Shown: one piece after another, positions 46,526-64,000 of the stretch | Layout: every line of letters starts with the position of its first letter | How positions within the stretch are numbered: position 1 is the first letter of the stretch | NCBI GenBank assembly: GCA_965140585.1 | Contig: OZ223264.1 | Span: 608,001 to 672,000, forward strand | DNA from: Spirochaetia bacterium | GTDB taxonomy: Bacteria > Spirochaetota > Spirochaetia > UBA9216 | Length of the DNA: 64,000 nt | Direction: 5' to 3' | Position numbers and translations under genes: made by a program | The notes under the pieces: generated by a model | Databases searched by the model: none | Seen by the model: the letters and a program-made list of their open reading frames with translations, nothing else | What the model was told of the DNA's origin: nothing

Positions 46526-46562
46526 AAAAAAAAGACTGAACAACAGATTAGTCATTCAGTCT
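46526..46562 (-). terminator. Intrinsic terminator after the tRNA
   Basis: AGACTGAA...TTCAGTCT stem followed by a T run on the minus strand. Confidence 0.65.
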
Positions 46563-46571
46563 ACCATCGTA

Positions 46572-46645: not shown

Positions 46646-46773
46646 GACGGACTTATATAGAACAATATTATGAGCCTTTTGTCAATAAGAACCAGTTAGG
46701 AAATCGTTATTGATAAATACTGAATATAGTAATAAACTAATACATAATAAAAACTAACTGTAAGGATTTTCAA

Positions 46774-47412: not shown

Positions 47413-47445
47413 ATGAATACTTCCAGAAGAGTATAATTCCAATAT

Positions 47446-47478
47446 CCTGAGCCGCCATTAAAAATGACGACTCAGGAT
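47446..47478. terminator. Hairpin between convergent genes
   Basis: TCCTGAGCCGCCATT / AATGACGACTCAGGA imperfect stem; pairs better (G-U) in the minus-strand transcript. Confidence 0.6.
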
Positions 47479-47485
47479 TCAGTAT

Positions 47486-48061
47486 TTAAAAAGTAACAGT
47501 GTAGAAAAGTGATGCACCAAACTTTGCAGAATCAAAAACCGATGTTATTATATTTCCAAATATTGCACCAATTAGATCTCCGAGAATAGATCCTGAATCT
47601 ACTGTCTGGATCGGACTGCTTGTTGGTATGAAGCCCAGTGATATATCGGCGCCCAGTTTTCCCGGTCCAATCGGAAAGATCGGAATAGCAAGACCTGTTG
47701 CCGCCCATGGCATGACCGGGCTTTCCGCATAGTAATCGATATATCCGTTTTCCACCTTTGATTCATCCGGATCAACGACTTTAAACATTCCCCCGATATC
47801 AAAATACAGCCATCCTAGCTCAAGACTGGCAAAAGGCCCGATATAGATGTCTGAAAATGTAGTTCCGAAGTATGCTCCGACACCGGCTCCGACAGCCGGA
47901 AATCCCAAATCGTACATCAGTTTGGGGTGAGCAGTAACATAGGTTGAAAAAAGAGAGAAAGATGCTCCAATTTCGGCATCTACCCGCAGCCCCTTTTCGC
48001 TCTCTCCAAAACTGAACGCTGCGAAAGAAAGACATAACAGTATAAAAATTAATCTTTTCAT
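47486..48061 (-). CDS. Small exported protein, probable beta-barrel
   Basis: GGAGG RBS; signal peptide; C-terminal FGASLFYTVTF. Confidence 0.7.
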   Translation of the reverse strand: MKRLIFILLCLSFAAFSFGESEKGLRVDAEIGASFSLFSTYVTAHPKLMYDLGFPAVGAGVGAYFGTTFSDIYIGPFASLELGWLYFDIGGMFKVVDPDESKVENGYIDYYAESPVMPWAATGLAIPIFPIGPGKLGADISLGFIPTSSPIQTVDSGSILGDLIGAIFGNIITSVFDSAKFGASLFYTVTF

Positions 48062-48155
48062 GATATCTCCTCCATGAATAGTATAAATGTATCACCCCGA
48101 TGTGATTTTATCTGATATATTGGTTCTATACCCATTTTTACAACAGGACGGTATT

Positions 48156-49634
48156 ATGGCAAAAAAGATAATTATAATAGGCGCCGGGCTCTCCGGTCTT
48201 GCTATTGCTGCCAAAATGGCTTCAGAGGGTTTTGATGTTGAAGTGTTCGAAAGGCACAGCAGCCCGGGAGGTGTCGCCAGGATTACCGAGGACAAGGGAT
48301 TTAAATTCGATATGGGGCCTACCTGGTACCTGATGCCGGAAGTTTTTGAAAAGTTCTTCAAATCGTTTGGCCGTGATATTAAAGACTACATGGAGATAGT
48401 TGAGCTTGAACCTTCCTATAAGATCTACTTTGAGGAGCAGGGAGAAGCTGTCCTTCATCGTGATATAGAAGAAAATAAAAAGCTGTTTGACTCATTCGAG
48501 AAGAACGGAGGCAAAAAGCTTGTTAAATATCTGAAAGACTCGAAATTCAAGTACAACGCGGCTTTGAAGGAATTCCTTTACAGGGATTACCGGAGTCTTC
48601 TTGATTTTATGCACTGGCCTCTTGTAAGGGACGGGCTTCGTCTGGATCTGCTTAAAAAACTCGATAATTATGCTTCTAAAACCTTCAAGGATCACCGGTC
48701 GAAAAAGGTTGTGGAGTTCAATACCGTATTTCTTGGAAGCAGTCCCTTTAAAACCCCGGCGCTGTATTCACTTATGGCACATGTTGACCTAACAATAGGC
48801 GTATATTATCCGATGGGAGGTATCCATGAACTTCCGAAAGCTCTTCAGCGGCTGGGGACCGAACTTGGTGTAAAGTATCATTTTAATTCAAATGTTGATG
48901 AGATTATGATTCAGAACCGGAAAGCACGCGGAATACGTACAGGCGACCGGCTTGTTGAGGGAGATATAGTCCTCTCTTCTGTTGACTACCATCATGCCGA
49001 AACCAAATTGCTTTCTCCGGAATACCGGAATTATTCCAGTCTATACTGGAAGACGAGGGTTATGGCTCCTTCAACCATGCTCATCTATCTTGGAATCAAT
49101 AAAAAGCTGCCTCAGATTATCCATCATACCTTTTATCTTGCCGATGACTGGGCTGAGCATTTTGATGATATTTTTTCAAAGAAAAAGTGGCCGGATAATC
49201 CCTGTTATTATCTTGGCTGCCCATCCAAGACCGATCCCTCAGTTGCTCCGGAAGGTATGGAAAATCTCTTTGTCCTAGTTCCAGTAGCTCCCGATCTTGA
49301 GGATCATGACAATATCCGTGAAGAGTTTTCCGAAAAAATTATCAGGCATATCGAAAAAACAATCGGTGAGGAATTCCGTGATAATATAGTAACGAAATAC
49401 ATTATCACTCACCGTGACTTTAAGCAGAATAATAATTTTTTCAAGGGCACAGCACTTGGTCTTGCCCATACCCTTATGCAGACTGCTATCCTCAGGCCAA
49501 GCCATGTGAACAAAAAAGTAAAAAACCTGTTCTATTCAGGACATTACACCCAGCCCGGAATAGGTATGCCCATGGCGATGATAGGGGCAGATTTGGTCGC
49601 AGAGTTGATAAAAAAGAAAAGCCGAAAGCTGTAG
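48156..49634 (+). CDS. crtI: Phytoene desaturase
   Basis: IIGAGLSGL, FDMGPTWYLMP, GTALGLAHTL, PGIGMPM; ATG at 48156. Confidence 0.88.
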   Translation: MAKKIIIIGAGLSGLAIAAKMASEGFDVEVFERHSSPGGVARITEDKGFKFDMGPTWYLMPEVFEKFFKSFGRDIKDYMEIVELEPSYKIYFEEQGEAVLHRDIEENKKLFDSFEKNGGKKLVKYLKDSKFKYNAALKEFLYRDYRSLLDFMHWPLVRDGLRLDLLKKLDNYASKTFKDHRSKKVVEFNTVFLGSSPFKTPALYSLMAHVDLTIGVYYPMGGIHELPKALQRLGTELGVKYHFNSNVDEIMIQNRKARGIRTGDRLVEGDIVLSSVDYHHAETKLLSPEYRNYSSLYWKTRVMAPSTMLIYLGINKKLPQIIHHTFYLADDWAEHFDDIFSKKKWPDNPCYYLGCPSKTDPSVAPEGMENLFVLVPVAPDLEDHDNIREEFSEKIIRHIEKTIGEEFRDNIVTKYIITHRDFKQNNNFFKGTALGLAHTLMQTAILRPSHVNKKVKNLFYSGHYTQPGIGMPMAMIGADLVAELIKKKSRKL

Positions 49635-49639
49635 AAGCC

Positions 49640-50305
49640 TTATTGCAGCAGATCCTTTGCAAAGTCTGCCGCGCTGTCAGGTACCGGCCGTTTGGCCCAG
49701 TTGTAATCAGATGAATTATATTCCCGGATGCTGTTTGATTCATGGGTGTTTATTACATATTCCAAATCCATAAGGCCTATACGCAGCGCCTCCGTTTTAT
49801 AAGGCTTGATTGGACCAATACCGGGAAGGCCCTGGCCGAGTCTGTAGTATGATATTCCCCTTAGAAAGCGAATGAACCAGTCCGGATGGCTGTCCGGAAT
49901 CGAGGTCATGAATGCTTCGGTGTTTTTAAGATTCTCTACGCCGAAGATTGTCCTTTTTTTTGCAAGAAAGGCTTCTGTTATCCCCTTATATATTCTGAAA
50001 AGGTTATCATCATCTCCATCTGATTCGGCTAATGCGAGATTTTCAACAGCTTCATCTAGGGTATTCATGCTGTCTGACAGCAGTATCTTGTTTGTATAAA
50101 GGATTCCGAGTCTGAAATAATCATCCGCTGCAGTTTCTTCTATCAACCCATCCAGATAGTCCAGATCGCCGCCAAGCAATGTTGTCATTGAAATTGTGTA
50201 GTATGTAGTTAGTGGTTCAGCTGTCCCGGATAATGCGGACAAGGATGCGGCGGAGGCCGAAAAATAGATAAAAATAAACAGAACCAATAATTTTTTTGTA
50301 CTCAT
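49640..50305 (-). CDS. Hypothetical exported helical (TPR-like) protein
   Basis: GAGGA RBS before MSTKKLLV signal peptide; alpha-helical pattern. Confidence 0.65.
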   Translation of the reverse strand: MSTKKLLVLFIFIYFSASAASLSALSGTAEPLTTYYTISMTTLLGGDLDYLDGLIEETAADDYFRLGILYTNKILLSDSMNTLDEAVENLALAESDGDDDNLFRIYKGITEAFLAKKRTIFGVENLKNTEAFMTSIPDSHPDWFIRFLRGISYYRLGQGLPGIGPIKPYKTEALRIGLMDLEYVINTHESNSIREYNSSDYNWAKRPVPDSAADFAKDLLQ

Positions 50306-50345
50306 ATACCTGTTCCTCTGTCTATAATATAACAAGGAAATAACC

Positions 50346-51452
50346 GTGGACAATAAACTTTTTTTTCTTTTCAGTCTGTCATCACTCATATACTGGCTCT
50401 TCGGCTGGTTTCTCCTTCCAAAACTTCGCTTTCTCACTGGTACGGATGATGAAAAGCTCAAGAACGCCGGCCTCAGTATAATCATTCCTGCACGAAACGA
50501 AGAAAAAAGGCTGCCCATCCTACTACAGTCACTCAAAGCTGAGGGAGCTTTTGAAAAGTATGAAGTAATAGTTGCGGATGACAACTCCTCGGACGGAACA
50601 TCAGATCTGGCTAAATCTTTTGGCTGTAAAGTTCTTAAGGTTACCGGTAAACCTGATGAGGCGCAGGGGAAATCCTGGGCCTGCGCGGTAGCTTCTGATG
50701 CAGCCGGTGGTGACTATTTTCTGTTCCTGGATGCGGATGTGAAGTTTTCTGCGGGAGGCCTTTCCAGGCTGATATCTGAATACCGGGAAGGCATGCTTTC
50801 AGTACAGCCGTGCCATGTTTTTTTCAGATTTTATGAAAGCTTCTCACTGTTCTTCAACCTTATGGCTATGGCCGGGGTTAACAGTTTCTGCTTTCATTCA
50901 AAACCGGCAGAGGTAAAGGGCGCTTTCGGTCCCTGTATGCTCACCTCCCGTAGAGATTACGATGAAATCGGCGGACACCGAGCAGTGGTGTCTGAACTTG
51001 TAGATGATCTGGCCCTTGCCGGACAGTATTCAGGGGCAGGGAAAAAAGTTCAAAATACAGCTGGAGGAGATTTTCTGACTTTCAGGATGTACCCGGAAGG
51101 ATTTAAATCACTCTCCGAAGGATGGATGAAGAACATGGCTGCAGCTTCCGGAAAAAGCTCAGGGCTTGCCGGGCTGTATTTCGGACTTTGGTGTGCAGGG
51201 GTTGCCTGCTGTATAATATCAGCTGCAGTCTCCGGAGGTTGTTTAAATCTTCTTCTTATGGTTCTTTGTATTCATTTCATGTATTCACTGCAGCTATATT
51301 TCACTGTCAGGAGAATCGGAAGCTGGAATTTCGGGCATTGCTGGATATTTCCGGTATATCTGATTTACTTTCTTTACATTATGATCCGCTCTCAGATCCG
51401 CACTAGGATATTCAGATTTTCATACTGGAAGGGCCGGCGAATTAATCTATAA
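50346..51452 (+). CDS. Family 2 glycosyltransferase (carotenoid glycosyltransferase, CrtQ/CruC-like)
   Basis: IIPARNEE, DDNSSDGT, GKSWAC, FLDAD, DDLALA, FRMY, WKGR. Confidence 0.85.
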   Translation: MDNKLFFLFSLSSLIYWLFGWFLLPKLRFLTGTDDEKLKNAGLSIIIPARNEEKRLPILLQSLKAEGAFEKYEVIVADDNSSDGTSDLAKSFGCKVLKVTGKPDEAQGKSWACAVASDAAGGDYFLFLDADVKFSAGGLSRLISEYREGMLSVQPCHVFFRFYESFSLFFNLMAMAGVNSFCFHSKPAEVKGAFGPCMLTSRRDYDEIGGHRAVVSELVDDLALAGQYSGAGKKVQNTAGGDFLTFRMYPEGFKSLSEGWMKNMAAASGKSSGLAGLYFGLWCAGVACCIISAAVSGGCLNLLLMVLCIHFMYSLQLYFTVRRIGSWNFGHCWIFPVYLIYFLYIMIRSQIRTRIFRFSYWKGRRINL

Positions 51453-51493
51453 ATCGGTTTATATATGACTGCTTTTATGTAATAATACTGCAT

Positions 51494-52315
51494 ATGAAAA
51501 AAGATGATCTGCATTACAGGATATTTAAAAAAGGAAGCAAAACCTACTTTACAAGCAGTCTGTTCTTCCCTCCGGACAAGCGAGATGATGTATTTATCCT
51601 CTATGGCTTTGTGCGCACGGCCGATGACTATGTAGATGAAATTCCCCAGGACAGCGATGGTTTTTATAAGTTCTGTTCCGATTACAGATCGGTACTGGCC
51701 GGAAACGGTGAATGCGGTAATCCGATTATAGACCGCTTTGTTGAACTTTCCAGAAGAAAAAATTTCGACCCTGCATGGACCGAGGCTTTTCTTCATTCCA
51801 TGGAGCTTGATCTGAGAAAAAAAGTGTATCAGACGCTGGATGATACACTGGAGTATATCTATGGTTCGGCGGAAGTTATCGGTCTGTACATGTCTAGGCT
51901 AATGGAGCTTCCTGAAGAAGCCTTTCATTCTGCAAGAATGCTTGGGCGGGCAATGCAGTACATAAATTTTATCAGGGATATTGCCGAAGATAACGAACTT
52001 GGCCGCAGATACCTGCCTGTTGAAGGCAGCGGATTGGAGTCTCTTTCAGAGGAGTACTGCAGAACACATAGTGACAGCTTTATTGACTTTCACAGAAAGC
52101 AGATTAGATTATATACACAATGGCATAATGAAGCGGTTAATGGTTATTCCTACATCCCGAAGAAAATGCGGGTTCCGATAAAAACGGCGGATGACATGTA
52201 TATGTGGACGGCCTCTCAAATTGAAAAGGATCCATTTATCGTTTTCCGCAGGAAGGTAAAGCCTGAAAAAGGTAGAATAATACGGCAGGTTATTAAAAAC
52301 TTTTTTACAGCATGA
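51494..52315 (+). CDS. crtB: Phytoene synthase
   Basis: GSKTY, RTADDYVD, YIYGSAEVIG, NFIRDIAED. Confidence 0.92.
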   Translation: MKKDDLHYRIFKKGSKTYFTSSLFFPPDKRDDVFILYGFVRTADDYVDEIPQDSDGFYKFCSDYRSVLAGNGECGNPIIDRFVELSRRKNFDPAWTEAFLHSMELDLRKKVYQTLDDTLEYIYGSAEVIGLYMSRLMELPEEAFHSARMLGRAMQYINFIRDIAEDNELGRRYLPVEGSGLESLSEEYCRTHSDSFIDFHRKQIRLYTQWHNEAVNGYSYIPKKMRVPIKTADDMYMWTASQIEKDPFIVFRRKVKPEKGRIIRQVIKNFFTA

Positions 52316-52971
52316 TTATGAAAAACAGACTTTTCAAAAAAACTGAATTGTTGTTCATTCTTATATGCGCTGATTTTTACCTGATGGGTATCATCTTTCA
52401 CAGCATTGATTTTACAGCAGGTTTAATGAAGCCTGTAACTCCCTTTGTTCTTTTAATATTCGGAGCATACCTTCTGTATGCAATAAGACAGTCCATCAGC
52501 AGAAAGACTCTTATTATTATCCTGATACTGTATCTTTTCACCTTTACTCTTGAGGCATTGGGAGTTGCTACAGGCATGGTCTTTGGAGAGTATTATTACG
52601 GAGATACCCTTGGGATGAAAGTTTTTGAAGTGCCTCTTGTTATAGGCTTTAACTGGGTGCTGATTATCTACGGACTTTATAGTGCCGCTGCTAAAATTTT
52701 TTCGGGTAACGGATGGCTTAATATCTTTATTGTCTCTGCAGGAGCGGTCGTTTTTGATTATGTAATGGAGCCTGCGGCCATAGGTTTGAAGTACTGGACC
52801 TGGACGGATGGTGTTATTCCGCTTCAGAATTATATAGCCTGGTTTATAATTGCATTTATATGCGCAGCTGTTTTCAAACTGGCAGGAACAAAGACTGCAG
52901 GCTATCTCCCTGCAGTTTATGTGGCAATACAATCGGTTTTTTTTATACTTCTTCGAATTATTGTTTTATGA
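52312..52971 (+). CDS. cruF: Carotenoid 1,2-hydratase (CruF/DUF422)
   Basis: EALGVATG, FGEYYYG, VPLVIGFNW, DYVMEP, PLQNYIAW. Confidence 0.85.
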   Translation: MIMKNRLFKKTELLFILICADFYLMGIIFHSIDFTAGLMKPVTPFVLLIFGAYLLYAIRQSISRKTLIIILILYLFTFTLEALGVATGMVFGEYYYGDTLGMKVFEVPLVIGFNWVLIIYGLYSAAAKIFSGNGWLNIFIVSAGAVVFDYVMEPAAIGLKYWTWTDGVIPLQNYIAWFIIAFICAAVFKLAGTKTAGYLPAVYVAIQSVFFILLRIIVL

Positions 52972-52981
52972 GGAATACAGC

Positions 52982-54049
52982 GTGAATGATTTTTTTCCTG
53001 AACACCGAGCAGAAATGATAAAGTGCCTCACCGATTATCTTAGAAATTTTCCCGGCGATACCGCTATTTGTTTTGAACATGATGATGTTCTTCAAACTCT
53101 ACTTGACTTCACCCTCAATGGAAAGATGATTCGCGGACGGCTGGTCAAGCTTGGATTTCGGCTGTTTGAAAAGCAGGATTCCTGCAACACGGTAATTGCC
53201 GGTTCTGCATTGGAACTGCTTCAGTCCGCGCTTTTGATCCATGATGATATCATGGATAACGACACTATGCGCCGGGGGCATTCCTCGATATACAGCAGAT
53301 ATGCAAAGATAATTGCCGGGGTATCAGCAGGAAAGGCGGTTGATTTTGAAGAAACCGGGAAATCTCTTGCTGTATGTGCAGGTGATATTGCCTTCTTTGC
53401 GGGAATGGATCTTCTCTCATCACTGTCTGTTTCTGCTGATATTTTAAAACAGTTAAGCTCGCTATTTTCGAGGGAGATGATCTACGTTGGCCTGGGCCAG
53501 ATGCAGGATGTAGCATCCGGCATAATACCGGGAATAATGAGCAGGGAGCAAATTTTAAATCTTTACCGTGTTAAAACCGGACGCTACACTTTTTCGCTTC
53601 CTCTTATGACTGGAGCAATCCTTGCCGGAGCAGATGAAAAGGCTGTTAAGCAGCTTTCTGAAATAGGTGAAATTCTTGGGATCATCTTTCAAATCAGGGA
53701 TGATGAACTTGGGCTTTTATCAAGCTCCGATGTTATCGGCAAGCCGGTAGGCAGTGATATAAGGCAGGGAAAGATTACCCTTTTCGTATCACTTTTCCTT
53801 GAGGCTGCCTCAGATGAAGACAAGGATTCTTTTTACCGTATTTTTGGCGGGGAAACCTTATCTTCCGGTGAAATTGACGAGGTCATCAGTCTTTTTAGAA
53901 AGTACAGTGTTATCGAGACCGTCAGGGAAGCTGCAGAAACGCATTCTGAAGAAACCGAGATGCTGATTCGTTCAATAGAAAATACTGATCCTGAAATGAT
54001 AGCGATACTCTCAGAAATTAATTCAGTCAATCTGCAGAGGGCAAAGTAA
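52982..54049 (+). CDS. crtE: Polyprenyl (geranylgeranyl) diphosphate synthase
   Basis: GKMIR, HDDIMD...RRG, GQMQD, KTGRY, FQIRDD; GAGGA RBS before GTG at 52982. Confidence 0.85.
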   Translation: MNDFFPEHRAEMIKCLTDYLRNFPGDTAICFEHDDVLQTLLDFTLNGKMIRGRLVKLGFRLFEKQDSCNTVIAGSALELLQSALLIHDDIMDNDTMRRGHSSIYSRYAKIIAGVSAGKAVDFEETGKSLAVCAGDIAFFAGMDLLSSLSVSADILKQLSSLFSREMIYVGLGQMQDVASGIIPGIMSREQILNLYRVKTGRYTFSLPLMTGAILAGADEKAVKQLSEIGEILGIIFQIRDDELGLLSSSDVIGKPVGSDIRQGKITLFVSLFLEAASDEDKDSFYRIFGGETLSSGEIDEVISLFRKYSVIETVREAAETHSEETEMLIRSIENTDPEMIAILSEINSVNLQRAK

Positions 54050-55524
54050 TGAAAAACTGCTCAATCATTGGCGGCGGAATAGGGGGGCTTACCTCCGCTA
54101 TCTATCTTGCAAAGTCCGGCTATGCGGTTGATCTCTTTGAGCAGGAAGACCTCTGCGGGGGAAAGGCTCTTGATCACAGGGGCGGCGGTTTCCGCTTTGA
54201 CGGAGGGCCTACACTGCTTACCATGCCCTTTGTCCTTGATCTTATTGCTGATGAGACCGGAATTCCGGTTGAACAGCGTCCAGAAATAAAACCGCTTGAG
54301 GAAACCTGCAGGTATTTCTATCCGGATAAGAGTGTTTTTCATGCATATACCGACAGGCATATGCTTTACGAAGAGATCTCAAGGAATATGACCGATTCTC
54401 CCCAGCAAATGGCTGAATATCTTTCTTATGTTAAACGAATCTATGATCTTTGTTCAGAGCTTTTTGTTTTCTCAAGTTTTCACGAGTTCGACGTTCTGAT
54501 GAGCAACCGTGATCTTATGAAGATGAATCAGCTGATTGAGATTGATCCGTTCAGAACCATGCATACAGCCAATAGATCCTTTTTCAAGGATAAGCGCCTT
54601 GTACAGTATGCCGACAGGTATGCCACTTACAGTGGAAGCAACCCATACCGTGTCCCCGGAACTCTTAACATCATCCATCATGTGGAGCAGCTCGGCGCAT
54701 CAGTTCCGTCGGAGGGGATTGCCGCCCTCCCGCAATTTCTTCAAAGGGCAGCGGTGAATGCCGGGGTAAGAATATATACCGGAATCGGTGTAAAGAAGAT
54801 TAATCTTGAACGCTCATCGGTTAAGTCATTGACCACTGACGCGGGTGAGGTCCCATGCCGAAGAATTATAAGCAATGTCGATGTCTCAATGACATATAAA
54901 AAACTGATGCCCGGTCATTATAATGCAGATCTTTTTAAATATGACATCACCCAGTCCTCGCTGTCGGCAATGGTTTTCTACTGGGGCATGAAGATCTGTC
55001 AGGACAAGCTTGCAGTGCATAATATTCTGTTTTCTGCCGATTACCGCAGGGAGTTCAGAAAACTCTTCGGAAGCAAAAGGTTTCCAGACGATCCAACGGT
55101 TTATATTTACATTTCTTCAGGGTATAAGGCTTCGGATGCTCCGGAGGGGCACGAAAACTGGTATGTTATGATAAATGCTCCCCGAATAGCCGGTCAATAC
55201 TGGGCGAAAGAGATTGAGCGCGCCCGTACTGCGGTTAAAAGACGAATTCTTGAAGAACTTGATATTGATGTTGATGAGCATCTTGTATATGAAGATGTCT
55301 TTACCCCTGAACAGATTGAAAAAAGAACCGGCAGTTATCAGGGCAGCCTTTACGGAATATCTTCAAATAACATGTTTGCAGCCTTTTTCCGCCAGGGAAA
55401 CCGCTCAAAGCGCTTCGGCGGACTGTACTTTTGCGGAGGCAGTGCTCATCCGGGAGCGGGAATGCCTCTTTCAATGCTTTCGGGGCGTACGGCTGCAGGG
55501 ATACTGAAGAGGCGGGATGGCTGA
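54049..55524 (+). CDS. Second CrtI-family desaturase, CrtD-like (hydroxycarotenoid 3,4-desaturase)
   Basis: IIGGGIGGL, FDGGPTLLTMP, RYATYSGS, GSLYGISSN, GGSAHPGAGMP. Confidence 0.8.
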   Translation: MKNCSIIGGGIGGLTSAIYLAKSGYAVDLFEQEDLCGGKALDHRGGGFRFDGGPTLLTMPFVLDLIADETGIPVEQRPEIKPLEETCRYFYPDKSVFHAYTDRHMLYEEISRNMTDSPQQMAEYLSYVKRIYDLCSELFVFSSFHEFDVLMSNRDLMKMNQLIEIDPFRTMHTANRSFFKDKRLVQYADRYATYSGSNPYRVPGTLNIIHHVEQLGASVPSEGIAALPQFLQRAAVNAGVRIYTGIGVKKINLERSSVKSLTTDAGEVPCRRIISNVDVSMTYKKLMPGHYNADLFKYDITQSSLSAMVFYWGMKICQDKLAVHNILFSADYRREFRKLFGSKRFPDDPTVYIYISSGYKASDAPEGHENWYVMINAPRIAGQYWAKEIERARTAVKRRILEELDIDVDEHLVYEDVFTPEQIEKRTGSYQGSLYGISSNNMFAAFFRQGNRSKRFGGLYFCGGSAHPGAGMPLSMLSGRTAAGILKRRDG

Positions 55525-56219
55525 TGATTAAAACCATGCATACACAGTGGGCAAGGGCTGTGTTCACTCCGGTTATAGAAGGGCTGCTCAGGACCAGTTT
55601 CAGCTCTTTTTATTCAACGGCCAGTGTGCCCGAAATTGATCCTGCTTCAGGGCTCCTTATACTGCCTAACCATTTCAGCTGGTGGGACGGCTTTTTCATG
55701 TACCATCTTCTCTTTCCCATGAGCAACAGGAAGGTGCATCTGATGATGCTTGAAAGGCAGCTGCGTCGATACTGGTATTTCAGGCATATCGGCGCGTTCT
55801 CTATAAACCCGGGGGCTGCGGCCTCTGTTATTGAATCTCTGGAATATACAGCCGGGATTTTGAATGATTCTTCAAGGCTTGCGATTATTTATCCTCAGGG
55901 AGAAATCCAGTCGCAGTTCAGCCGCAGTATAAAGCTTTATCCCGGTTTCGCATCTGCACTGAAAAAAACAGAAAAGCCTGTAACTGTTCTTCCTGTTTTT
56001 TTTGCCGTGGACTGGTTTGAGCATAAAAAACCGGAGATTTGGTTCAGATACGGTACTCCGTTCAGTAAGGAAGAGGTTCTGGGTGATTTATCCGGATTTT
56101 TCAGAACCTTTAATCGGGGATTCACTGAGCTGAAAAACAGCATCATCTCACGTGATTTTATGACCGATTGCTTTAGAGAAAGAGACCGAAAGCTTTGGTC
56201 TATTAATGCTCAGAATTAA
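55524..56219 (+). CDS. PlsC-like acyltransferase (carotenoid glycoside acyltransferase, CruD-like)
   Basis: NHFSWWD (HxxxxD) and IYPQGE; ATG overlaps the upstream TGA. Confidence 0.82.
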
Positions 56220-56238
56220 GGATGGTAGAAATTTACTG

Positions 56239-57978
56239 ATGAATCATGAAGTTATAACAGCAGATGTTCTAATCATCGGAGCAGGTCTGGCCGGCTGCAG
56301 CGCCGCAGCTGAGTGTGCTGCAGCAGGACTGCAGACAATTGTTTTAAGCAAGCTTCATCCTCTTAGAAGTCATTCAGGTGCTGCCCAGGGCGGGATAAAT
56401 GCTGCTCTGTATGAAGAGTCAACAGCCGGGCATCAGGCTGATACCGTAAGAGGCAGTGATTATCTTGCGGATCAGGATGCCGTTGAAATACTGTGCAATG
56501 AAGCTCTAACTGAAGTAAGGCGTCTTGAGGCCTGCGGGGCAGTTTTTTCCAGAACCCCTGAAGGGCGGATCTCTCAGCGTCCATTCGGTGGTCAGGGAAA
56601 GAGCCGAACCTGCTATGCCAAGGACAGAACCGGCCTTGTCTGCCTGCAGACTGTCTATGAGCAGGCTTTAAAAGCCAGAGTCGGCTTTTATGATGAGTGG
56701 TACGTAACAGATCTTGTTTATGATAAGGCCGAAAAGAAGGCTTACGGCGTGGTAGCTTACAATCTTAGAACTACAAAGCCTGTAGTTTTTCTCGCCGGGG
56801 CTGTCCTTTTTGCCACCGGCGGCTACGGTAGGGCATTCAGACGCAATTCGAATGCCCATGCAAATACGGGAGATGCACTTTCAATCTTTTTGAGAAACGG
56901 GCTTCCCCTTGAGGATATGGAATTTGTTCAGTTTCATCCTACCGGACTTTCCGATTCAGGAATTCTTATCTCGGAGGCTGCCCGCGGCGAGGGCGGGTAT
57001 CTTTTAAACAGCCAGGGTGAAAGATTCATGAAATTATATGCACCCGGAAGACTGGAACTTGCGCCGCGGGACGTAGTCAGCCGGGCTGTAGAAACTGAAA
57101 TAATTGAAGGTCGGGGGACAGGCCCTGGGAAGGATTCAATCCATCTTGATTTGAGTCATCTTGGTGCTGCAGAAGTTCAAAGGCTTCTGCCTGAACTCAG
57201 AGACCTTGCCCTCTGTTTTCAGAATGAAGATCTCGGAACCGTTCCAGTTCGAATAGCTCCTACAGCCCATTACAGCATGGGCGGAATTCCCGTTGATACA
57301 GACTGCAGGGTTTTCTCCGGAGTTACTCAAAAGACTGCAGGGCTGTATGCCGCAGGAGAATGCGCCTGTGTCAGCGTTCACGGCGCCAACAGGCTCGGAG
57401 GGAATTCACTGCTTGAGGCTGTTGTTTACGGTAGGCGTGCCGGCCGAACTATTTCCGCTGATTTTAAAAATCTGAAGATTTCGTCACTTATCGGAGAACA
57501 AAGCAAGGCTCTTGCCTCATCGATTCTTGAAAAAACATATTCAGAACTTTCCGCCTTTGAGAATGCCTCCGGCACCCGAAGCTTGGCAGAAGTCCGAAGA
57601 AGGCTTCAGTCCGCAATGACTGATAATGCCGGAATATTCAGAACAGAAGACGGGCTAAGAACTCAGAAAGGCATTATTTCGCAGCTTAAAAAGGACTATG
57701 CCGATATAAGGCTTACTGACCGCTCTTCCTGTTTCAATACAGAACTGGAAGAACTTCTTGAGCTTGGTCATATGCTCGATTACTCGGCAGCAATAGTTGC
57801 CGGAGCGCTTGAACGAAAGGAAAGCAGGGGCGCCCATTGCAGGACTGATTACGCTGAACGTGATGATGAGAACTGGCTGAAGCATACCTTTACTTCATTT
57901 ACTACCGGTGATGATATTTCTATCGATTACAAGCCGGTGAGTATAAGGAGTATTATTCCACAGAAGAGGGATTATTAG
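56239..57978 (+). CDS. sdhA: Succinate dehydrogenase/fumarate reductase flavoprotein
   Basis: [10 protein letters not shown] (covalent FAD His), [35 protein letters not shown]. Confidence 0.93.
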
Positions 57979-57985
57979 ACTTATT

Positions 57986-58945
57986 ATGGATGAAGATAGA
58001 GAAGTAAATTTTAAAATATACAGATTTAACCCTGATTCAGGAGTTCTTCCCCGGTTTGACAGCTATATCCTCGAATGCGGGGAGAGTGAGCAGGTTCTTG
58101 ATATTCTTATCCGAATCAAGGAAGACCATGATCCGGGCTTATCTTTCCGGCGTTCGTGTCGCCACGGTATCTGCGGTTCCTGCGCAGTCAGGGTTAATGG
58201 AAAGCCGGTTCTTGCATGCAAAACTCCAGTATCCGGGCTTGTCGCCGATTTTGGAACCGAACTCAGCGTTACTCCTCTGATTTATGATCGGGTTCTTAAG
58301 GATCTTATTATTGACAGAGATGATTACTGGCAGAAGATGCAGGAGGTTAAGCCCTATACCGTGACAATCGATAAATTTCAGCCGGAATCTGATGAACTGC
58401 TTATCAAGCCTGAACTGAATGACGGAATTGCTGATGCAGATTACTGTATCCAGTGCTCTTCATGTTATTATGTATGTCCCGTACTGAAAATATCGCCGTC
58501 CTTTCTTGGGCCTGCAGCCTTTGTTAAGGCTGCAAGATTCACTGCGGATGTTCGTGATTATTCATCAGACAGGCTTGCAATTGTTAATCAAAACAAAACC
58601 GGTGTCTGGGACTGTGTTAAATGCCTGAAATGTACAGAAAGCTGTCCGAAGGGGATAGATCCTTTCAGGCTGATTACAAGGCTAAGGCAGGGGGGGATAT
58701 CAGCAGGAGCGGTGAAAGACCCTGTTCATACAAGACATGTTACCGGTTTCCGGACTGCAATACGTCATGTCGGTACTATAAATGAACTTCTTCTTGCATT
58801 TTTTACTCTGCGTTTCGGCCTTATTAGAATGATTCCGCGCGGAATACTAATGGTCTTGAAGCGAAAACTTCATCTTAACCCTCTTTCTCCGAAAAGCCGC
58901 AATATTGATGAGGTTCGGAAATATTTTAAGGATAAAAGAAAATGA
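57986..58945 (+). CDS. sdhB: Succinate dehydrogenase/fumarate reductase Fe-S subunit
   Basis: SCRHGICGSC (2Fe-2S), CIQCSSCYYVCP, CVKCLKCTESCP. Confidence 0.92.
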   Translation: MDEDREVNFKIYRFNPDSGVLPRFDSYILECGESEQVLDILIRIKEDHDPGLSFRRSCRHGICGSCAVRVNGKPVLACKTPVSGLVADFGTELSVTPLIYDRVLKDLIIDRDDYWQKMQEVKPYTVTIDKFQPESDELLIKPELNDGIADADYCIQCSSCYYVCPVLKISPSFLGPAAFVKAARFTADVRDYSSDRLAIVNQNKTGVWDCVKCLKCTESCPKGIDPFRLITRLRQGGISAGAVKDPVHTRHVTGFRTAIRHVGTINELLLAFFTLRFGLIRMIPRGILMVLKRKLHLNPLSPKSRNIDEVRKYFKDKRK

Positions 58946-59910
58946 CATTTGCTTTATATACAGGCTGTACGCCCAAGGTTGCCGAGCCTGAGCTTCTTAA
59001 ATCAGCATACGCGCTGGCAGAGCATCTGGGCTGGGACTTTATAGAGAAAAGGGAATTTACCTGCTGCGGCGGATCTCATCTTCAGGATGCGGATGATGAT
59101 GAAACAATGTTTATTAACCTGCGCAACCTTGCTTATGCTGAACAGGACGGCCTTGATGTTGTAACATTGTGCAACACCTGCCAGTTTGTTATATCTGATT
59201 TCAGACAGAGGGCTCTATCATCCCCTGAGAAAATGGATGAAATTAATAAAAGCCTTGGCAGGCACAACCTCAGTTTCAGTGGAAAAAGCAGGGTTATACA
59301 CTTTCTCTATGCACTGATCGAGACCCTCGGTTATGAGGGGATTGCCTCAAGGGTTGTTAAGCCGCTGACCGGGTTAAAAGTCGCATCTTTTTACGGATGC
59401 CACAATATCAGGCCTTCCGGACTTCAGACTGATGTCAACCTTGGTGAGAATTCATGGAAACCGCGTTCTCTGGACAGGCTTGTCGAAGCACTTGGCGGCG
59501 AGCCTGTATATTTCCCGGAGGCTGACAGCTGCTGCGGTTTTCATACTTCACTTTACTCAGGACGCATCTCGGGTAAATTAAGCGGTCTTATCCTTAAACA
59601 GGCCTTTGAAATGGGGGCCGATGTGATGATTACTCCCTGTCCGCTCTGTCATACCAATCTTGACGCAGCGCAGTATGAAGCCAGAAGGGAAGTAGGGCTT
59701 GGTTTTGGCTTCCCGCTGCCGATTCCCCGTTTTATCAGGAGTTCCGAGTTTACACCCGGGTTTATTAAAGAAGATTTTGATCTTCCTATTCTTCATTTTG
59801 AACAGCTTATTGGTTTGAGCTGGGGGCTTGACCGACGGCAGCTCGGTATGAACCATAATATTATTTCCTGGAGGAAAAACAGGCGTCTCAGGAATCTTGT
59901 AAATGGGTAA
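58942..59910 (+). CDS. CCG-domain (HdrB/SdhE-like) subunit
   Basis: YTGC, CCGG, CNTC, FYGCH, CCG, PCPLC. Confidence 0.9.
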   Translation: MTFALYTGCTPKVAEPELLKSAYALAEHLGWDFIEKREFTCCGGSHLQDADDDETMFINLRNLAYAEQDGLDVVTLCNTCQFVISDFRQRALSSPEKMDEINKSLGRHNLSFSGKSRVIHFLYALIETLGYEGIASRVVKPLTGLKVASFYGCHNIRPSGLQTDVNLGENSWKPRSLDRLVEALGGEPVYFPEADSCCGFHTSLYSGRISGKLSGLILKQAFEMGADVMITPCPLCHTNLDAAQYEARREVGLGFGFPLPIPRFIRSSEFTPGFIKEDFDLPILHFEQLIGLSWGLDRRQLGMNHNIISWRKNRRLRNLVNG

Positions 59911-59918
59911 TTCAGTAA

Positions 59919-60878
59919 ATGGATGGCGTTGTTTTTAAAAGGATAAAAATAAATCCGGGCAGGATGATAAAAAGTATACCCGGCTTGTTGGAAAAACTCC
60001 CGACAGCCTATTCCGCTCTTAGGCCGAAAACCCTTGCTGTAGGCTTTTCACCTGTTATGGCATCTCTTTCTCTTAGCCGTTTTATAAACGGAAAACTGAA
60101 TATATCTTTAGCGATAGTCACTGTACTATGTGTTATATTTCTCCAGGCCGCTGCTAATCTAATGAATGATTATATGGATTATCTTAAAGGCAGCGATACA
60201 AAGGCCCGGCTCGGCCCCCTTCGATATACACAGTCCGGGCTATTATCTGTTGAAGAAATACAGCTTCTTATTATTGCTACAGCATTAATTTCTGGTCTTT
60301 CCGGCTTATACCTTGTTTTAAACGGCGGAGGTCTGCCTATAATTTTTGCTGGACTATTTTCAGTTTTCGGAACGCTTGCCTATTCAGCCTTTCGGCGGCC
60401 CTTCGGGTTTACCGGAGGCGGAGAACTTGCCGCTCTTATTTATTACGGGCCGCTTGCATCTACAGGAACTGCCTACCTTCAGTCCGGAGTGACAGACCCT
60501 TTATTTCTTATTCCGGGCTTTTCTTTCGGGATATATTCACTGGCTCTACTTACTGTAAATAATTATCGCGACAGTATTGAGGATGAGTCAACGGGTAAAA
60601 TTACCCTCGCGGTTCTGTTCGGAAGAAGACTCTCTGTAGTAATGTATTTTTCTGTAGTATTTGCTCCGATTATCAGTCTTCTCTTGTTCGCTGCGATCCC
60701 TGGACTTTCAGGATGGTTTCTGCTACCCCTGTTAACCCTGATTCCCGGAATCTTTTCCTTCAGGGGCTTTACCCGATCCGGAATCAGTCGGGACCTGAAC
60801 CGCTATCTTGGTATTACCGGATTATTATCATTTCTGCATGCAGTGCTTTACACTGCTGCAGTTTTTCTTTCGCTGTAG
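59919..60878 (+). CDS. menA: 1,4-dihydroxy-2-naphthoate prenyltransferase (UbiA family)
   Basis: RPKTL, NLMNDYMDYLKGSD, NNYRD...DESTGKITLAV. Confidence 0.88.
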   Translation: MDGVVFKRIKINPGRMIKSIPGLLEKLPTAYSALRPKTLAVGFSPVMASLSLSRFINGKLNISLAIVTVLCVIFLQAAANLMNDYMDYLKGSDTKARLGPLRYTQSGLLSVEEIQLLIIATALISGLSGLYLVLNGGGLPIIFAGLFSVFGTLAYSAFRRPFGFTGGGELAALIYYGPLASTGTAYLQSGVTDPLFLIPGFSFGIYSLALLTVNNYRDSIEDESTGKITLAVLFGRRLSVVMYFSVVFAPIISLLLFAAIPGLSGWFLLPLLTLIPGIFSFRGFTRSGISRDLNRYLGITGLLSFLHAVLYTAAVFLSL

Positions 60879-60886
60879 CTGGAAAT

Positions 60887-61657
60887 TTAAAGAGCTGAAA
60901 GCAGGAAGGCGCCTGTCCCGGCAATGCTTACAGAAAGCAGGTTTACCATGTCATTGGTCATCCACTGGAAACCGGCGACCCTGACGTTTTTATATGAGTG
61001 TTCGGTTATGTATCCCTGTTCACTGTCGATGTATTTAGCCTGAAGGGATGCTCCAAGCAGGCTGTCCGACAGTGAGCCCATGTTACCTCCGATAAATACG
61101 AAAAGAGCCTGAAGTATTCCGATTTGAGGGGCCGACAGAGCTATCAGAGCGCTGAATAATGCTCCAGCTGCAGAAGCGGAGGTTCCCAGCAGCGTAATTC
61201 CTCCGGAGACTCCGGCATCAACATGTCTGAAAGTAAGAAGAGAAATCGGTTTCTTTTTCGATAGAACGCCAATCTCACTTGCCCATGTATCGGCTGTTGC
61301 TGCTGCCAGACTTGCATATGATGCAGTAAGCCAGAAACTTTTTCCTGAAATATAGTGTATAATTACAAAGACTGCTGCAGGAAGACCGTTGGCTGCTACC
61401 TGGAGCCAGTCCCGTGTACCGCTTTTATGTATTATTCTTTCAATGTCAGGACGGTAACGTCTTTCAAGCCGCCCAATAATGGTGCTGCTCATAAAGAAAA
61501 AGACCAGTACCAGCCAAAGTACAATCCCGCCAAAAAAATAGAGTGAAAGCCCTATTGCCAAACCTAATAACGCCCCTGTACCGGTTACTGATTTCTTGAT
61601 CCACGCGCCTGCTGCCAGCAGCAGGTTCAATACTATTCCCGTAATTAAAAAAATCAT
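60887..61657 (-). CDS. DUF92/TMEM19 membrane protein (VTE6 phytyl-phosphate kinase family)
   Basis: RDWLQVAANG, AAATADTWASEIG, GVSGGITLLG, DSLLGA, NDMVN. Confidence 0.88.
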   Translation of the reverse strand: MIFLITGIVLNLLLAAGAWIKKSVTGTGALLGLAIGLSLYFFGGIVLWLVLVFFFMSSTIIGRLERRYRPDIERIIHKSGTRDWLQVAANGLPAAVFVIIHYISGKSFWLTASYASLAAATADTWASEIGVLSKKKPISLLTFRHVDAGVSGGITLLGTSASAAGALFSALIALSAPQIGILQALFVFIGGNMGSLSDSLLGASLQAKYIDSEQGYITEHSYKNVRVAGFQWMTNDMVNLLSVSIAGTGAFLLSAL

Positions 61658-61659
61658 TT

Positions 61660-62313
61660 TTAAAATACCAGTTTATCCATTAATATGGTTACCACAACCG
61701 GAACAGTTATATTATCCAGGCCGAATGGAGTGACAAGTTCTATGACCGCGGCAGCCAGGCTGATACCTATTGCTGCGAACCATACAGGCTCATATCCTGC
61801 CGCTGACATGTAAATAATTACAACAGCATATGAAAAAATAAACATTGAAAAGCTGCCTGATAAAGATTTTTCATTTTTGAAAATTTTAATAGGCCCTCTA
61901 TGCCATTTTTCACCAATGATACTTGCCATTCCATCACCCCATCCCAAAACAAGAACTCCGCAGCCGGCTGCTGTCATGTTGAAATCCAAAAGGTATACAG
62001 CAAGGAGCAGAAGGACAAGCGAGATTGGGAAATATACAGTGCCGTAGTTGTTTCCATCTGCTGAATTCATTCCGGGAACCAGATCAAATCGGGCAATAAA
62101 GAAATTAATGATGATAAAGCTTACAGGCCCAATAAGTGCCCAGCCAAGGCTGTCAATCATCAGTGATGCAATTATCCACCAGAAGGAGACTCCTATGTGA
62201 ATGACTTTTCGAGCAAGGCTGTCTGATATTAACTTTTTGCCTGATAAAAGTTTTGCGATAAATATTATCAGAAAAATAGATAAATAAGAAATTATCACTC
62301 CAAGCAGGTTCAT
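61660..62313 (-). CDS. CTP-dependent polyprenol kinase (phytol/dolichol kinase, VTE5-like)
   Basis: RKVIHI, GTVYFPIS, GWGDGMASIIG, KSLSGS, DNITVP. Confidence 0.85.
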   Translation of the reverse strand: MNLLGVIISYLSIFLIIFIAKLLSGKKLISDSLARKVIHIGVSFWWIIASLMIDSLGWALIGPVSFIIINFFIARFDLVPGMNSADGNNYGTVYFPISLVLLLLAVYLLDFNMTAAGCGVLVLGWGDGMASIIGEKWHRGPIKIFKNEKSLSGSFSMFIFSYAVVIIYMSAAGYEPVWFAAIGISLAAAVIELVTPFGLDNITVPVVVTILMDKLVF

Positions 62314-62375
62314 TTATAACTCCACATTTATTCTTTAATCATTATATATAGTAAATCTTATAAAATCTATCAAAT

Positions 62376-62411
62376 AAAAAAGGCTGGCTGAGAAATTTCC
62401 TCAGCCGGCCT
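62376..62411 (-). terminator. Intrinsic terminator
   Basis: AGGCTGGCTGAG / CTCAGCCGGCCT stem with a T run following on the minus strand. Confidence 0.8.
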
Positions 62412-62438
62412 GTAAAGTTATGATATGGCAAGGTAGTG

Positions 62439-64000
62439 CTACTCTCCAATCGCCAGGGCTTCTATTCTATCACGGTTCCTGTCCGCTGATTTTTTCTCCA
62501 GTTCCCTTGCCGATATTATCAGCATCTGCAGACGGTTCTCGATGTTTGCAAGTGCTGTATCGGGATCATAATCAAGCGCGATGATCTGAATATGAGGAAA
62601 CTTCTTCTTTACAGTCTTAATCATTCCGCGGCCGGTAATGTGGTTCGGCATACATCCGAAGGGCTGAACGTATACAAAGGAGTTGACGCCCTTCTTTGCA
62701 AGCTCTATTACCTCTCCGGGCATCATCCAGCTTTCTCCTCCACGGTATGTCATATCCATCATATCGGAAGTGTTTTCGGCAAGATTCTTCACATCACCAT
62801 ATCCGTCATAAAACTTGAACTTCCGGTAGTATTCATCAACCTTATAGTGAACCGAACCGTACACATAGTCAGTGAGCCCATTGAGGCAGTAATCCATGAA
62901 TGGATTCGAGGTGTGACCGCGTCTGCCTTTCTCTTTCTTGATAACAACACTCTGCCTGAAAAAGTCATGCATGGCGGGGAAGACTGTTTCCATTCCATTG
63001 GCTTCAAGGTAGCGTTCTACATTTGCATTTGATTCAGGGTGGAAGTTCATCAGGATTTCTCCGATAATTCCGACTCTCGGCTTTCTGATAGTCCGGTCGC
63101 ATTCGACATTGTTGAACGCCTCAATAGCCTGTTCAAAGTACTTCAAAGCCTTTTTGCGGTTGCCGCAGATATTTTCGTAGATGAAATCTGTATACAACTC
63201 AAAAAGTTCATCGGATTCACCGGCATTAACCTCGTATGGTCTTATCTTCCGGCGTATCTCCTCAAGAACATCGGTGATAGTTATCGACCAGAGCATATTC
63301 ATCTGGAACTTAAGCGTAAGCTTGAAGCCCGGATGCATATCCTTTGTATCCTTACCTGTAGTCAGTATGGGCACATCGGCATAACCCGCTTCATCAAGAG
63401 CCTTTCTTGCAAGTCCGGCATAATGACCGGCCCGGCAGGCTTCACAGTTCTTCGCAAGGCCAATGGCTACATCTGTTGACTTATAGTTTCCATCCCTGAT
63501 TGTTTTTAACAGTTCGCCTACGTTGATCTGGGCCGGGTAGCAGATATCGTTGTGGACGTATTTCTTCCCAAGCGCAATGGCTTCCCTGTCGGCAAGCATC
63601 GCCGGAACAGCTTTGTAGCCTTCAGCCTCAAGAACCTTGGCTGAATACTTAGCAAAGGCCGGAGACAGGGTCGGGATCAGTACGGTCCTTCGCTTGTCTT
63701 CTTTTTCAAATTTCACCTCAAAGGGTTTGCTGTATTCTTTAAGCTCTACAGGATTGTCTTTTTTAAGCCGCCTGCTTGCTTTTACCGTTTCAATAAATGA
63801 CTTGATTCTGATATTAAGCGGTCCCTGATTTTCGCCCTCATCGAGTTTCAGAACCAGCATCTGCTTGCCTGCTCTCTCATTCAGGATTCGGGCCATCTCG
63901 TCCGAAATAATAGCGTCATGTCCGCATCCGAATGAAACAATCTGAACAAGTTCAAGGTTCGGATGCTCGGCGACAAAGCTTGCAGCAGAGTACATTCTGC
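62439..64000 (-). CDS. C-terminal part of a 2-hydroxyacyl-CoA dehydratase activase-related protein (runs off the window)
   Basis: SFGCGHD, VHNDICYP, CRAGHY, GEIL, QPFGCMPNHITGRG, DYDP. Confidence 0.85.
   Translation of the reverse strand, partial: RMYSAASFVAEHPNLELVQIVSFGCGHDAIISDEMARILNERAGKQMLVLKLDEGENQGPLNIRIKSFIETVKASRRLKKDNPVELKEYSKPFEVKFEKEDKRRTVLIPTLSPAFAKYSAKVLEAEGYKAVPAMLADREAIALGKKYVHNDICYPAQINVGELLKTIRDGNYKSTDVAIGLAKNCEACRAGHYAGLARKALDEAGYADVPILTTGKDTKDMHPGFKLTLKFQMNMLWSITITDVLEEIRRKIRPYEVNAGESDELFELYTDFIYENICGNRKKALKYFEQAIEAFNNVECDRTIRKPRVGIIGEILMNFHPESNANVERYLEANGMETVFPAMHDFFRQSVVIKKEKGRRGHTSNPFMDYCLNGLTDYVYGSVHYKVDEYYRKFKFYDGYGDVKNLAENTSDMMDMTYRGGESWMMPGEVIELAKKGVNSFVYVQPFGCMPNHITGRGMIKTVKKKFPHIQIIALDYDPDTALANIENRLQMLIISARELEKKSADRNRDRIEALAIGE

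Follow-up and report, generated by a model that had tools for sequence, protein, structure and literature searches.

Carotenoid desaturases of the CrtI type are generally regarded as enzymes that use oxygen. Here, we analysed a stretch of 64,000 nucleotides from a Spirochaetia bacterium (contig OZ223264.1 of assembly GCA_965140585.1, positions 608,001 to 672,000; hereafter, the window), in which a carotenoid operon runs into the genes of a type-E succinate dehydrogenase/fumarate reductase (sdhA, sdhB, and sdhE; together, sdhABE) and menA, which face a convergent pair of genes for a DUF92 protein and a 217-aa candidate prenol kinase. Purified CRTI is reported to be inactive under N2, with quinones, menaquinone included, substituting for O2 as the acceptor, and a connection to the respiratory chain is suggested in the same paper (PMC3382138). 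The need of FAD-dependent CrtI-family enzymes for an external acceptor, with quinones serving under N2, is what the window would share with CRTI and with the plant PDS-plastoquinone-PTOX chain (PMC3382138, PMC4492965). A MenA/DmkA-type prenyltransferase in a fermenter without quinone ring synthesis is also a feature of the FLEET locus of Lactiplantibacillus and Listeria (Ndh2, DmkA, DmkB, FmnB/ApbE, and PplA); Lactiplantibacillus plantarum, which has DmkA and DmkB, is reported to have been given 1,4-dihydroxy-2-naphthoate (DHNA) as a menaquinone precursor (PMC9888254) and is described as incapable of its own quinone synthesis (PMC10746273). The 8-methylmenaquinol:fumarate reductase (MFR) of Campylobacterota and type-E succinate:quinone reductase have the same composition as the enzyme of the window, namely SdhA, SdhB, and an SdhE subunit with two CCG domains. 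Plant VTE5 and VTE6 are described as feeding phytyl-diphosphate-dependent pathways, including that of vitamin K1, and VTE6 as having first been proposed from bacterial COG1836 gene context; according to this 2022 review, such prenol salvage genes are known or characterized only from plants and cyanobacteria (PMC9782597).

Ten plus-strand genes, from that of a family 2 glycosyltransferase (GT2) to menA, were separated by gaps of at most 41 nt or overlapped in the map of open reading frames (ORFs) (Table 1). The acyltransferase (AcylT) gene, the last carotenoid gene upstream of sdhA, overlapped sdhA by 14 nt; sdhA and sdhB were 7 nt apart, sdhB and sdhE overlapped by 4 nt, and 8 nt separated sdhE from menA. 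This tight packing, with its overlaps, indicates that sdhABE-menA forms the distal end of a carotenoid operon of ten genes. A scan for promoters and terminators found nothing decisive inside the operon from GT2 to menA. The menA gene converges on the DUF92 gene with a stop-to-stop spacer of 8 nt (60879-60886). An initial annotation of this region, made from the sequence alone, had given the sdhA-sdhB-CCG-menA order and the convergent DUF92 gene exactly, as the ORF map and family scans confirmed, and had missed the carotenoid island that surrounds all of these genes. Every gene of the island was present as a single copy in the source genome (G000; 98.5% complete).

This arrangement recurred in other spirochaetes. 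An SdhE match at E ≤ 1e-20 was present in 19 of 201 sampled genomes of the class, and the four closest orthologues (43 to 53% identity; genomes G024, G104, G185, and G199) all adjoined carotenoid desaturase genes. In G024 and G104, the genes were ordered GT2-PSY-CrtD-AcylT-SdhA-B-E-MenA-CrtI on one strand (PSY being the phytoene/dehydrosqualene synthase family gene), with the same AcylT-SdhA junction as in the window. G185 carried CrtI-SdhA-B-E-MenA with a 4-nt overlap between CrtI and SdhA. In G199, genes for a Ndh2-like protein, a 102-aa ORF product, and a HepT-like long-chain prenyl synthase were followed by CrtI, SdhA-B-E, and a convergent ApbE gene. PSY was located on another contig in both G185 and G199, the desaturase alone travelling with the quinone/fumarate genes. 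Two junction types, AcylT-SdhA and CrtI-SdhA, were thus seen across four families, and the 14-nt and 4-nt overlaps at these junctions imply co-translation. None of 80 metagenome sdhABE loci (41 to 45% SdhE identity) contained a gene for a Crt protein, MenA, the kinase, or DUF92, indicating that the linkage is specific to the spirochaete group. In a quick SdhA tree with long branches, from which G104 was excluded for its split sdhA, the four full-length spirochaete sequences were set apart from 57 metagenome SdhA sequences by a branch with an SH-aLRT value of 100. This sdhA of G104 (locus L177, 9588-11422) aligned in two pieces and is possibly frameshifted or misassembled. A phylum-wide sample of 401 genomes, searched for SdhE at E ≤ 1e-50, added one genome, G270 (38% identity), whose short locus of 3.7 kb had neither Crt nor MenA genes. 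A full-text search of open-access papers and bioRxiv found no account of a type-E fumarate reductase and MenA embedded in carotenoid operons.

These arrangements suggest that oxygen-independent pigment synthesis is coupled to a small electron sink made up of a quinone and fumarate. In such a system, the CCG-anchored type-E SdhABE would act as a quinol:fumarate or succinate:quinone oxidoreductase, and MenA would make (demethyl)menaquinone. The head group would probably be scavenged DHNA, because the ring genes are missing, and the tail would probably come from the long-chain-type prenyl synthase of the genome. Nqr or a Ndh2-like enzyme would pass electrons to the quinone pool, fumarate would serve to re-oxidize it, and the FAD-dependent CrtI and CrtD would also deliver their electrons to this pool under anoxia. 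A fermenter without an oxidase would have to re-oxidize this quinone, and the fumarate reductase would do so, in keeping with the structure of the operon. Wherever the block occurs among the spirochaete genomes, it lies beside a CrtI-family gene, which a sink for desaturase electrons would explain. The kinase and DUF92 proteins would convert a prenol to prenyl phosphate and then to prenyl diphosphate in the manner of VTE5 and VTE6, most likely re-activating farnesol or geranylgeraniol for the prenyl-diphosphate users of the island, with PSY as the main user and MenA as a possible second one. Taken as a whole, a DHNA-based quinone/fumarate pool for both NADH and the desaturases, with the kinase pair recycling prenols, is considered to be the best explanation, and we assign it a probability of about 0.45. 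The transfer of desaturase electrons to the quinone is, as a separate proposition, conceivable at somewhat less than even odds. A broader statement, that some fermentative spirochaetes hard-wire a private sink, consisting of a menaquinone-type quinone made from scavenged DHNA by the MenA of the operon and a type-E fumarate reductase, into carotenoid operons while the kinase pair tops up prenyl diphosphates, is tentative, and we lean against it slightly.

If true, the private sink would let the O2-dependent CrtI and CrtD work in strict anoxia and would be an anaerobic bacterial counterpart of the plant PDS-plastoquinone-PTOX chain, with the difference that the quinone would be re-oxidized by a fumarate reductase from the desaturase operon itself. 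Several anaerobic or aerotolerant bacteria make carotenoids without oxygen, and the operon would give a direct answer on their electron acceptor. It would also supply engineered hosts with a small set of genes for making carotenoids anaerobically.

Several observations weigh against this explanation. Naphthoquinones are reported to be poorer acceptors for CRTI than benzoquinones (PMC3382138). Salinispira pacifica makes carotenoids anaerobically, and its description reports no respiratory lipoquinones (PMC4511686). Although 79 of the 201 class genomes have PSY, only 5 have this SdhABE type; therefore, the module is not generally needed for pigment synthesis. Moreover, the five spirochaete cases may go back to one ancestral arrangement and not to five independent events. 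Plain NADH:fumarate respiration through Nqr or a Ndh2-like enzyme could alone explain sdhABE-menA, which would then be a redox-balancing module co-inherited with the carotenoid genes and lacking any electron link to the desaturases. NqrF exceeded its cut-off in the source genome and in all five relatives checked (G001, G024, G104, G185, and G199); one of these, G001, has no island. The 80 metagenome loci carry the same type of SdhABE without any carotenoid gene, the active-site motifs of SdhA are canonical, and the pair of Ndh2-like and long-chain synthase genes found in the source genome lies directly upstream of CrtI-sdhABE in G199. However, mere co-inheritance fits poorly with a CrtI-family linkage kept through at least two junction types in four families, with operons in G185 and G199 that hold only the desaturase and not the rest of the pathway, and with gene overlaps that imply co-translation. 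We consider respiration without a desaturase link rather unlikely as the whole account. The two functions are compatible, since one quinone pool can serve both a desaturase sink and respiration.

The absence of ring genes from the window, pointed out in the initial annotation, extended to the whole genome: no MenB, MenD, MqnA/D, MqnC, or UbiE/MenG was found over cut-offs, and there was no cytochrome bd. Likewise, MenB exceeded its cut-off in none of the five relatives, and PF02621 did so in one of the five, marginally (26.5 bits against 26). The missing ring pathway is a feature of the pathway and not of any enzyme, and the gene content points to scavenged DHNA, which had been proposed for MenA beside home-made DHNA and is plausible with ring synthesis missing from the genome, or to an unknown ring. 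Scavenging, for which L. plantarum is a precedent, would be a further case of dependence on DHNA supplied by the community. The genome has only two UbiA-family genes, menA and an MqnP-like gene. The latter lies on contig 9 at about 121300-128900 (locus L011, 7230-14880) with genes for ApbE and an MqnL-type UbiD, and with UbiX 3 kb further on; the UbiD scored 649 bits against TIGR03701, over the cut-off, and among the five relatives only G001 has the MqnL type over the cut-off.

For electron input, NqrF was found over its cut-off on contig 1 (703934-705019), 32 kb past the end of the window, which implies an Nqr-type complex. On contig 4 (391185-394343), a Ndh2-like flavoprotein gene is followed directly by a gene for a HepT-like long-chain prenyl synthase, the pair that also precedes CrtI-sdhABE in G199. 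A quinone-dependent NADH:fumarate chain with de novo tail supply is thus plausible from the gene content, and the fumarate-linked respiration proposed earlier holds to that degree, with NqrF and the Ndh2-like gene present. Compared with the FLEET locus, the Ndh2-like, long-chain synthase, ApbE, and PplA-like genes were all found in the source genome or its relatives, as judged against published accounts of that system (PMC9888254, PMC10746273). In contrast to FLEET, the acceptor here would be intracellular fumarate via SdhABE and not extracellular iron, and the genes are spread over three loci in the source genome.

The reductase itself is an ordinary type-E SdhABE, and its genomic place is unusual. 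SdhA and SdhB exceeded their subfamily cut-offs, and a separate subunit carries two CCG domains, as is characteristic of type E. The best PDB match of SdhA was 6lum_A (530 bits), and the alignment kept the canonical flavin and substrate motifs, to which we assign their presumed roles. The MFR equivalog cut-offs were all missed (NF042982, 488 of 1,100 bits; NF042952, 138 of 600; NF042965, 193 of 500), although the best NCBIfam match of the SdhE was the MFR anchor model NF042965. Unlike in MFR, the match of SdhA began at model position 43, leaving the N-terminal export region of the model unmatched. Compared with type-E succinate:quinone reductases, the unusual feature is the position inside a carotenoid operon with menA following.

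The identity of MenA bears on another alternative, in which this protein is a UbiA-family enzyme resembling lycopene elongase that, with CruF and CrtD, makes C45/C50 bacterioruberin-like pigments. A CruF-type hydratase, CrtD, and a UbiA-family gene do occur in one cluster, a set that we take to resemble the bacterioruberin pathway. However, all strong NCBIfam matches of the protein were DHNA prenyltransferases, and UbiA models other than MenA gave at most 29 bits. The window protein passed TIGR00751, and its orthologue in G024 passed both TIGR00751 (193 bits) and NF004751 (265.5 bits). In addition, menA always lies directly after sdhE and never after cruF or crtD. These results make an elongase function very improbable. 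The nearest database relatives of the window MenA were 36 to 40% identical.

The 217-aa protein and its DUF92 partner form a two-gene unit, the stop of the former lying 2 nt from the start of the latter (61658-61659). The initial annotation had noted this spacing and pairing, both of which were upheld; its label of the first protein as VTE5-like was the weakest part. No Pfam or NCBIfam model matched the 217-aa protein, even at E ≤ 10 for Pfam and with PF01148 included. A PDB sequence search with the profile of its alignment gave nothing beyond a single match at E 7.9. For this protein, 462 homologues were recovered at E ≤ 0.001, and the names attached to them in their source records include "phytol kinase" and "diacylglycerol/polyprenol kinase family protein." An AlphaFold model built with 30 homologues in the alignment reached a pLDDT of 91.8. 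The top four Foldseek matches of this model were weak hits to CdsA (4q2e/4q2g, CDP-diacylglycerol synthase; probability up to 0.98, E 0.09, TM 0.42). The top VIA-align match, 4q2e_A, had a Z of 9.2 over 159 aligned residues with an rmsd of 7.1, weak for a helical membrane protein, and CarS (5guf) gave a Z of 6.8; unrelated helical bundles can give values of this size. A paralogue in a relative, matched by the 217-aa protein at E 8.7e-10, reached PF01148 at E 9.7e-4, below the cut-off. Neighbors in the ESM Atlas were named "polyprenol kinase" and "phytol kinase," and PF01148 was found in 18% of the members of the "phytol kinase" cluster. We treat the protein as a likely member of the VTE5/dolichol-kinase group (PF01148 superfamily, COG0170) and as a candidate CTP-dependent prenol kinase. 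Its failure against every curated family model and the weakness of its structural matches count against the role that we propose for it. The DUF92 match to PF01940 spanned positions 2 to 250 of 251 in the profile, while TIGR00297 gave 108 bits (cut-off, 205.85).

A scan with the kinase alignment, in which each species was represented by a single genome, gave 80 loci for examining the conservation of the pair. These were mostly from Spirochaetota, the others being from Clostridia, Tissierellales, Erysipelotrichales, Acholeplasmataceae, Izemoplasmatales, Petrotoga, and Candidatus Uabimicrobium. In 70 loci, the kinase-like gene was immediately followed by a DUF92 gene of the same orientation, and in 19, isolates and complete genomes among them, both were encoded in one open frame of 476 to 641 aa. 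In two fused proteins scanned with Pfam, the C-terminal half matched DUF92 and the N-terminal half was silent. The conserved adjacency and the fusions therefore indicate that kinase-DUF92 is a real two-step module. The pair belongs to an already known, comparatively predicted kind, and its only characterized relatives are the phytol kinase and phytyl-phosphate kinase of plants and cyanobacteria; the earlier description of a tight two-gene unit agrees with these counts. The likeness to VTE5 (phytol kinase), FOLK (farnesol kinase), and VTE6 (phytyl-phosphate kinase) lies in the pairing of DUF92 (COG1836) with a small polytopic protein of the CdsA/dolichol-kinase type and in two successive phosphorylations, implied here by the fusions. 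The differences are that the 217-aa protein fails PF01148, that the neighbors are carotenoid and quinone genes and not tocopherol genes, and that the host is a fermenter and, as the initial annotation had also judged, non-phototrophic by gene content: neither of its two UbiA-family genes is a chlorophyll synthase. Farnesol or geranylgeraniol would be a likelier substrate than phytol.

The initial annotation had combined these genes into a single route, in which scavenged prenols, phytol among them, would be phosphorylated by the kinase pair and MenA would then make a vitamin K1-like or short-chain quinone for the adjacent reductase. The convergent genes do lie 8 nt apart in one accessory island, scavenging is already in the picture with the ring genes missing, and plant VTE5 and VTE6 are described as feeding the vitamin K1 pathway (PMC9782597). 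However, tblastn with the window proteins found no MenA, SdhB, or SdhE in any of the 80 kinase loci and only one distant SdhA-like flavoprotein. A phmmer search of the loci with four UbiA-family queries added one MenA-like ORF, 1.3 kb from the kinase gene of locus L077. Conversely, none of the four other spirochaete sdhABE(-menA) loci contained a kinase or DUF92 gene, and G024 and G104 had no kinase orthologue at E ≤ 1e-20. The linkage on which the proposed route depended is thus largely missing in relatives. A salvaged tail is not needed either, as a long-chain-type prenyl synthase is encoded elsewhere in the genome, beside the Ndh2-like gene, and nothing points to phytol as the substrate or to a vitamin K1-like product. 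One Spirochaetaceae lineage, with 9 to 12 loci, has the pair beside genes for Ndh2-like, HepT-like long-chain synthase, ApbE, and PplA-like proteins, a quinone-type neighborhood that a MenA-like gene accompanies once; it lends some weight to a quinone role and counts against a purely carotenoid one. Across phyla, the partner of the pair is PSY and not MenA. Altogether, a route from phytol to vitamin K1 is not supported, and we regard it as improbable.

PSY was found in 10 of the 80 loci and immediately preceded the kinase gene, in the same orientation, in 7 (L055, L064, L068, L096, L098, L105, and L118), from Petrotoga, Acholeplasmataceae, Erysipelotrichaceae, Clostridium, and a metagenome-assembled genome (MAG) of Bacillota. 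Other recurrent cross-phylum neighbors were CrtI (8 of 80), polyprenyl synthase (6 of 80), and DXS (5 of 80). A carotenoid operon directly faces the convergent pair in L100, from a Sediminispirochaeta MAG, and in L103, without an intervening sdhABE-menA. In the class sample, the kinase was found at E ≤ 1e-20 in 33 genomes and PSY in 79; PSY was present in 23 of the 33 kinase-positive genomes and in 56 of the 168 kinase-negative ones, counts that overstate independence, the genomes being related. Kinase and PSY were at most 10 kb apart in 10 of the 23 double-positive genomes, across eight families. The PSY-upstream operons point to the substrate class of a module that is widespread in anaerobes. 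A role specific to carotenoids is challenged by the 10 kinase-positive class genomes without PSY and by the 23 PSY-negative genomes behind the first 50 kinase loci.

The 10 kinase-positive class genomes without PSY also leave room for an alternative in which kinase-DUF92 acts on long polyprenols, such as undecaprenol or dolichol-like carriers, for envelope glycosylation and not on C15-C20 prenols. The superfamily to which the kinase-like protein belongs, if to any, is that of CdsA, dolichol kinase, and phytol kinase, and many pairs have housekeeping neighbors only. However, carrier lipids work as monophosphates, which makes a fused second kinase (19 of 80 loci) hard to explain, and the cross-phylum neighbors are PSY, CrtI, prenyl synthase, and DXS. 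A function in long-polyprenol metabolism is accordingly quite improbable. The simplest common denominator is a general module for prenol re-activation that sits beside whichever prenyl-diphosphate consumer matters in each organism; in the window, re-activation of farnesol or geranylgeraniol would be its contribution. Neighbors such as PGI, GroEL, SecDF, DUF2207, NYN, an ABC transporter, ThyX, and M23 reflected single-lineage synteny and were set aside as having no functional signal. In five loci of Clostridia, Clostridiaceae, or Clostridium (L090, L110, L111, L122, and L123), a kinase-like gene without DUF92 is followed directly by DXS, which encodes the first enzyme of the methylerythritol phosphate pathway. 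Seven of 50 kinase-bearing genomes had no PF00348 synthase (L055, L080, L081, L089, L090, L096, and L098); three of the seven have PSY directly upstream of kinase-DUF92, and IspH was present in six. These may be incomplete MAGs, may have an unrecognized chain-elongating enzyme, or may truly depend on prenol salvage, and we do not claim that salvage is obligate.

Table 1. Features of the carotenoid, reductase, and kinase gene island, in window coordinates
Feature	Position	Strand	Basis
crtI, phytoene desaturase family, bifunctional CrtID-like	48087-49634	+	NF058655, 634 bits (cut-off 640); TIGR02734, 460 bits (cut-off 238)
GT2 glycosyltransferase, probably carotenoid glycosyltransferase	50346-51452	+	PF00535, E 2.4e-22; weak CruG and HpnB matches
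PSY, phytoene/dehydrosqualene synthase family	51494-52315	+	PF00494, E 1.6e-45; sole copy in the genome
CruF-type carotenoid 1,2-hydratase	52312-52971	+	PF04240, E 2.6e-28; TIGR03460, 69 bits, below cut-off
Short-chain-type polyprenyl diphosphate synthase, GGPPS-like	52850-54049	+	PF00348, E 1.5e-49
crtD-like carotenoid 3,4-desaturase, CrtI family, FAD-dependent	54049-55524	+	NF042421, 399 bits (cut-off 500); TIGR02734, 286 bits (cut-off 238)
Acyltransferase (AcylT), probably carotenoid-glycoside acyltransferase	55431-56219	+	PF01553, E 1.6e-10
sdhA/frdA, flavoprotein subunit	56206-57978	+	TIGR01812, 716 bits (cut-off 567); single copy in the genome
sdhB, iron-sulfur subunit	57986-58945	+	TIGR00384, 219 bits (cut-off 88); PF13085, PF13183
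sdhE, CCG-domain subunit	58942-59910	+	PF02754 in two stretches, E 1.2e-24; NF042965, 193 bits (cut-off 500)
menA, 1,4-dihydroxy-2-naphthoate polyprenyltransferase family	59919-60878	+	TIGR00751, 144 bits (cut-off 102); NF004751, 190 bits (cut-off 264)
DUF92 membrane protein, VTE6 family, putative prenyl-phosphate kinase	60887-61657	-	PF01940, 206 bits (cut-off 27.5)
217-aa membrane protein, putative CTP-dependent prenol kinase (VTE5/dolichol-kinase-like)	61660-62313	-	Names of homologues; pairing with DUF92
Terminator-like hairpin	62386-62406	-	Ends the upstream 518-aa gene and sets it apart from the kinase-DUF92 unit

Among the remaining features, the real start of the GT2 gene is possibly downstream of 50346. 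The top NCBIfam matches of the GGPPS-like protein were IdsA and geranylgeranyl diphosphate synthases, every one below its cut-off. The hairpin upstream of the kinase gene, with nine pairs and a T-run, was the strongest terminator-like site within 47400-62600.

The island was delimited by comparison with a genome of the same genus (G001; 99% complete). This genome was collinear with the window at 44001-48150, 49641-50320, and 62452-64000 and lacked the segments 48150-49641, containing crtI, and 50320-62452, a block of 12.1 kb from GT2 to the kinase gene. The kinase, MenA, SdhE, and PSY were all without a match there. In 10 other genomes searched in the family of the source genome (f1), neither PSY nor SdhE was found, which favors gain of the island over its loss in the congener; the junctions themselves gave no direction. 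No integrase was seen. Between the two missing segments lies a minus-strand gene of about 221 aa (49640-50320), intact in the congener, with no Pfam match and weak TPR-like leads. The tRNA gene, a tRNA-Met (46572-46645), is located in the part shared with the congener, about 1.5 kb to the left of the first missing segment.

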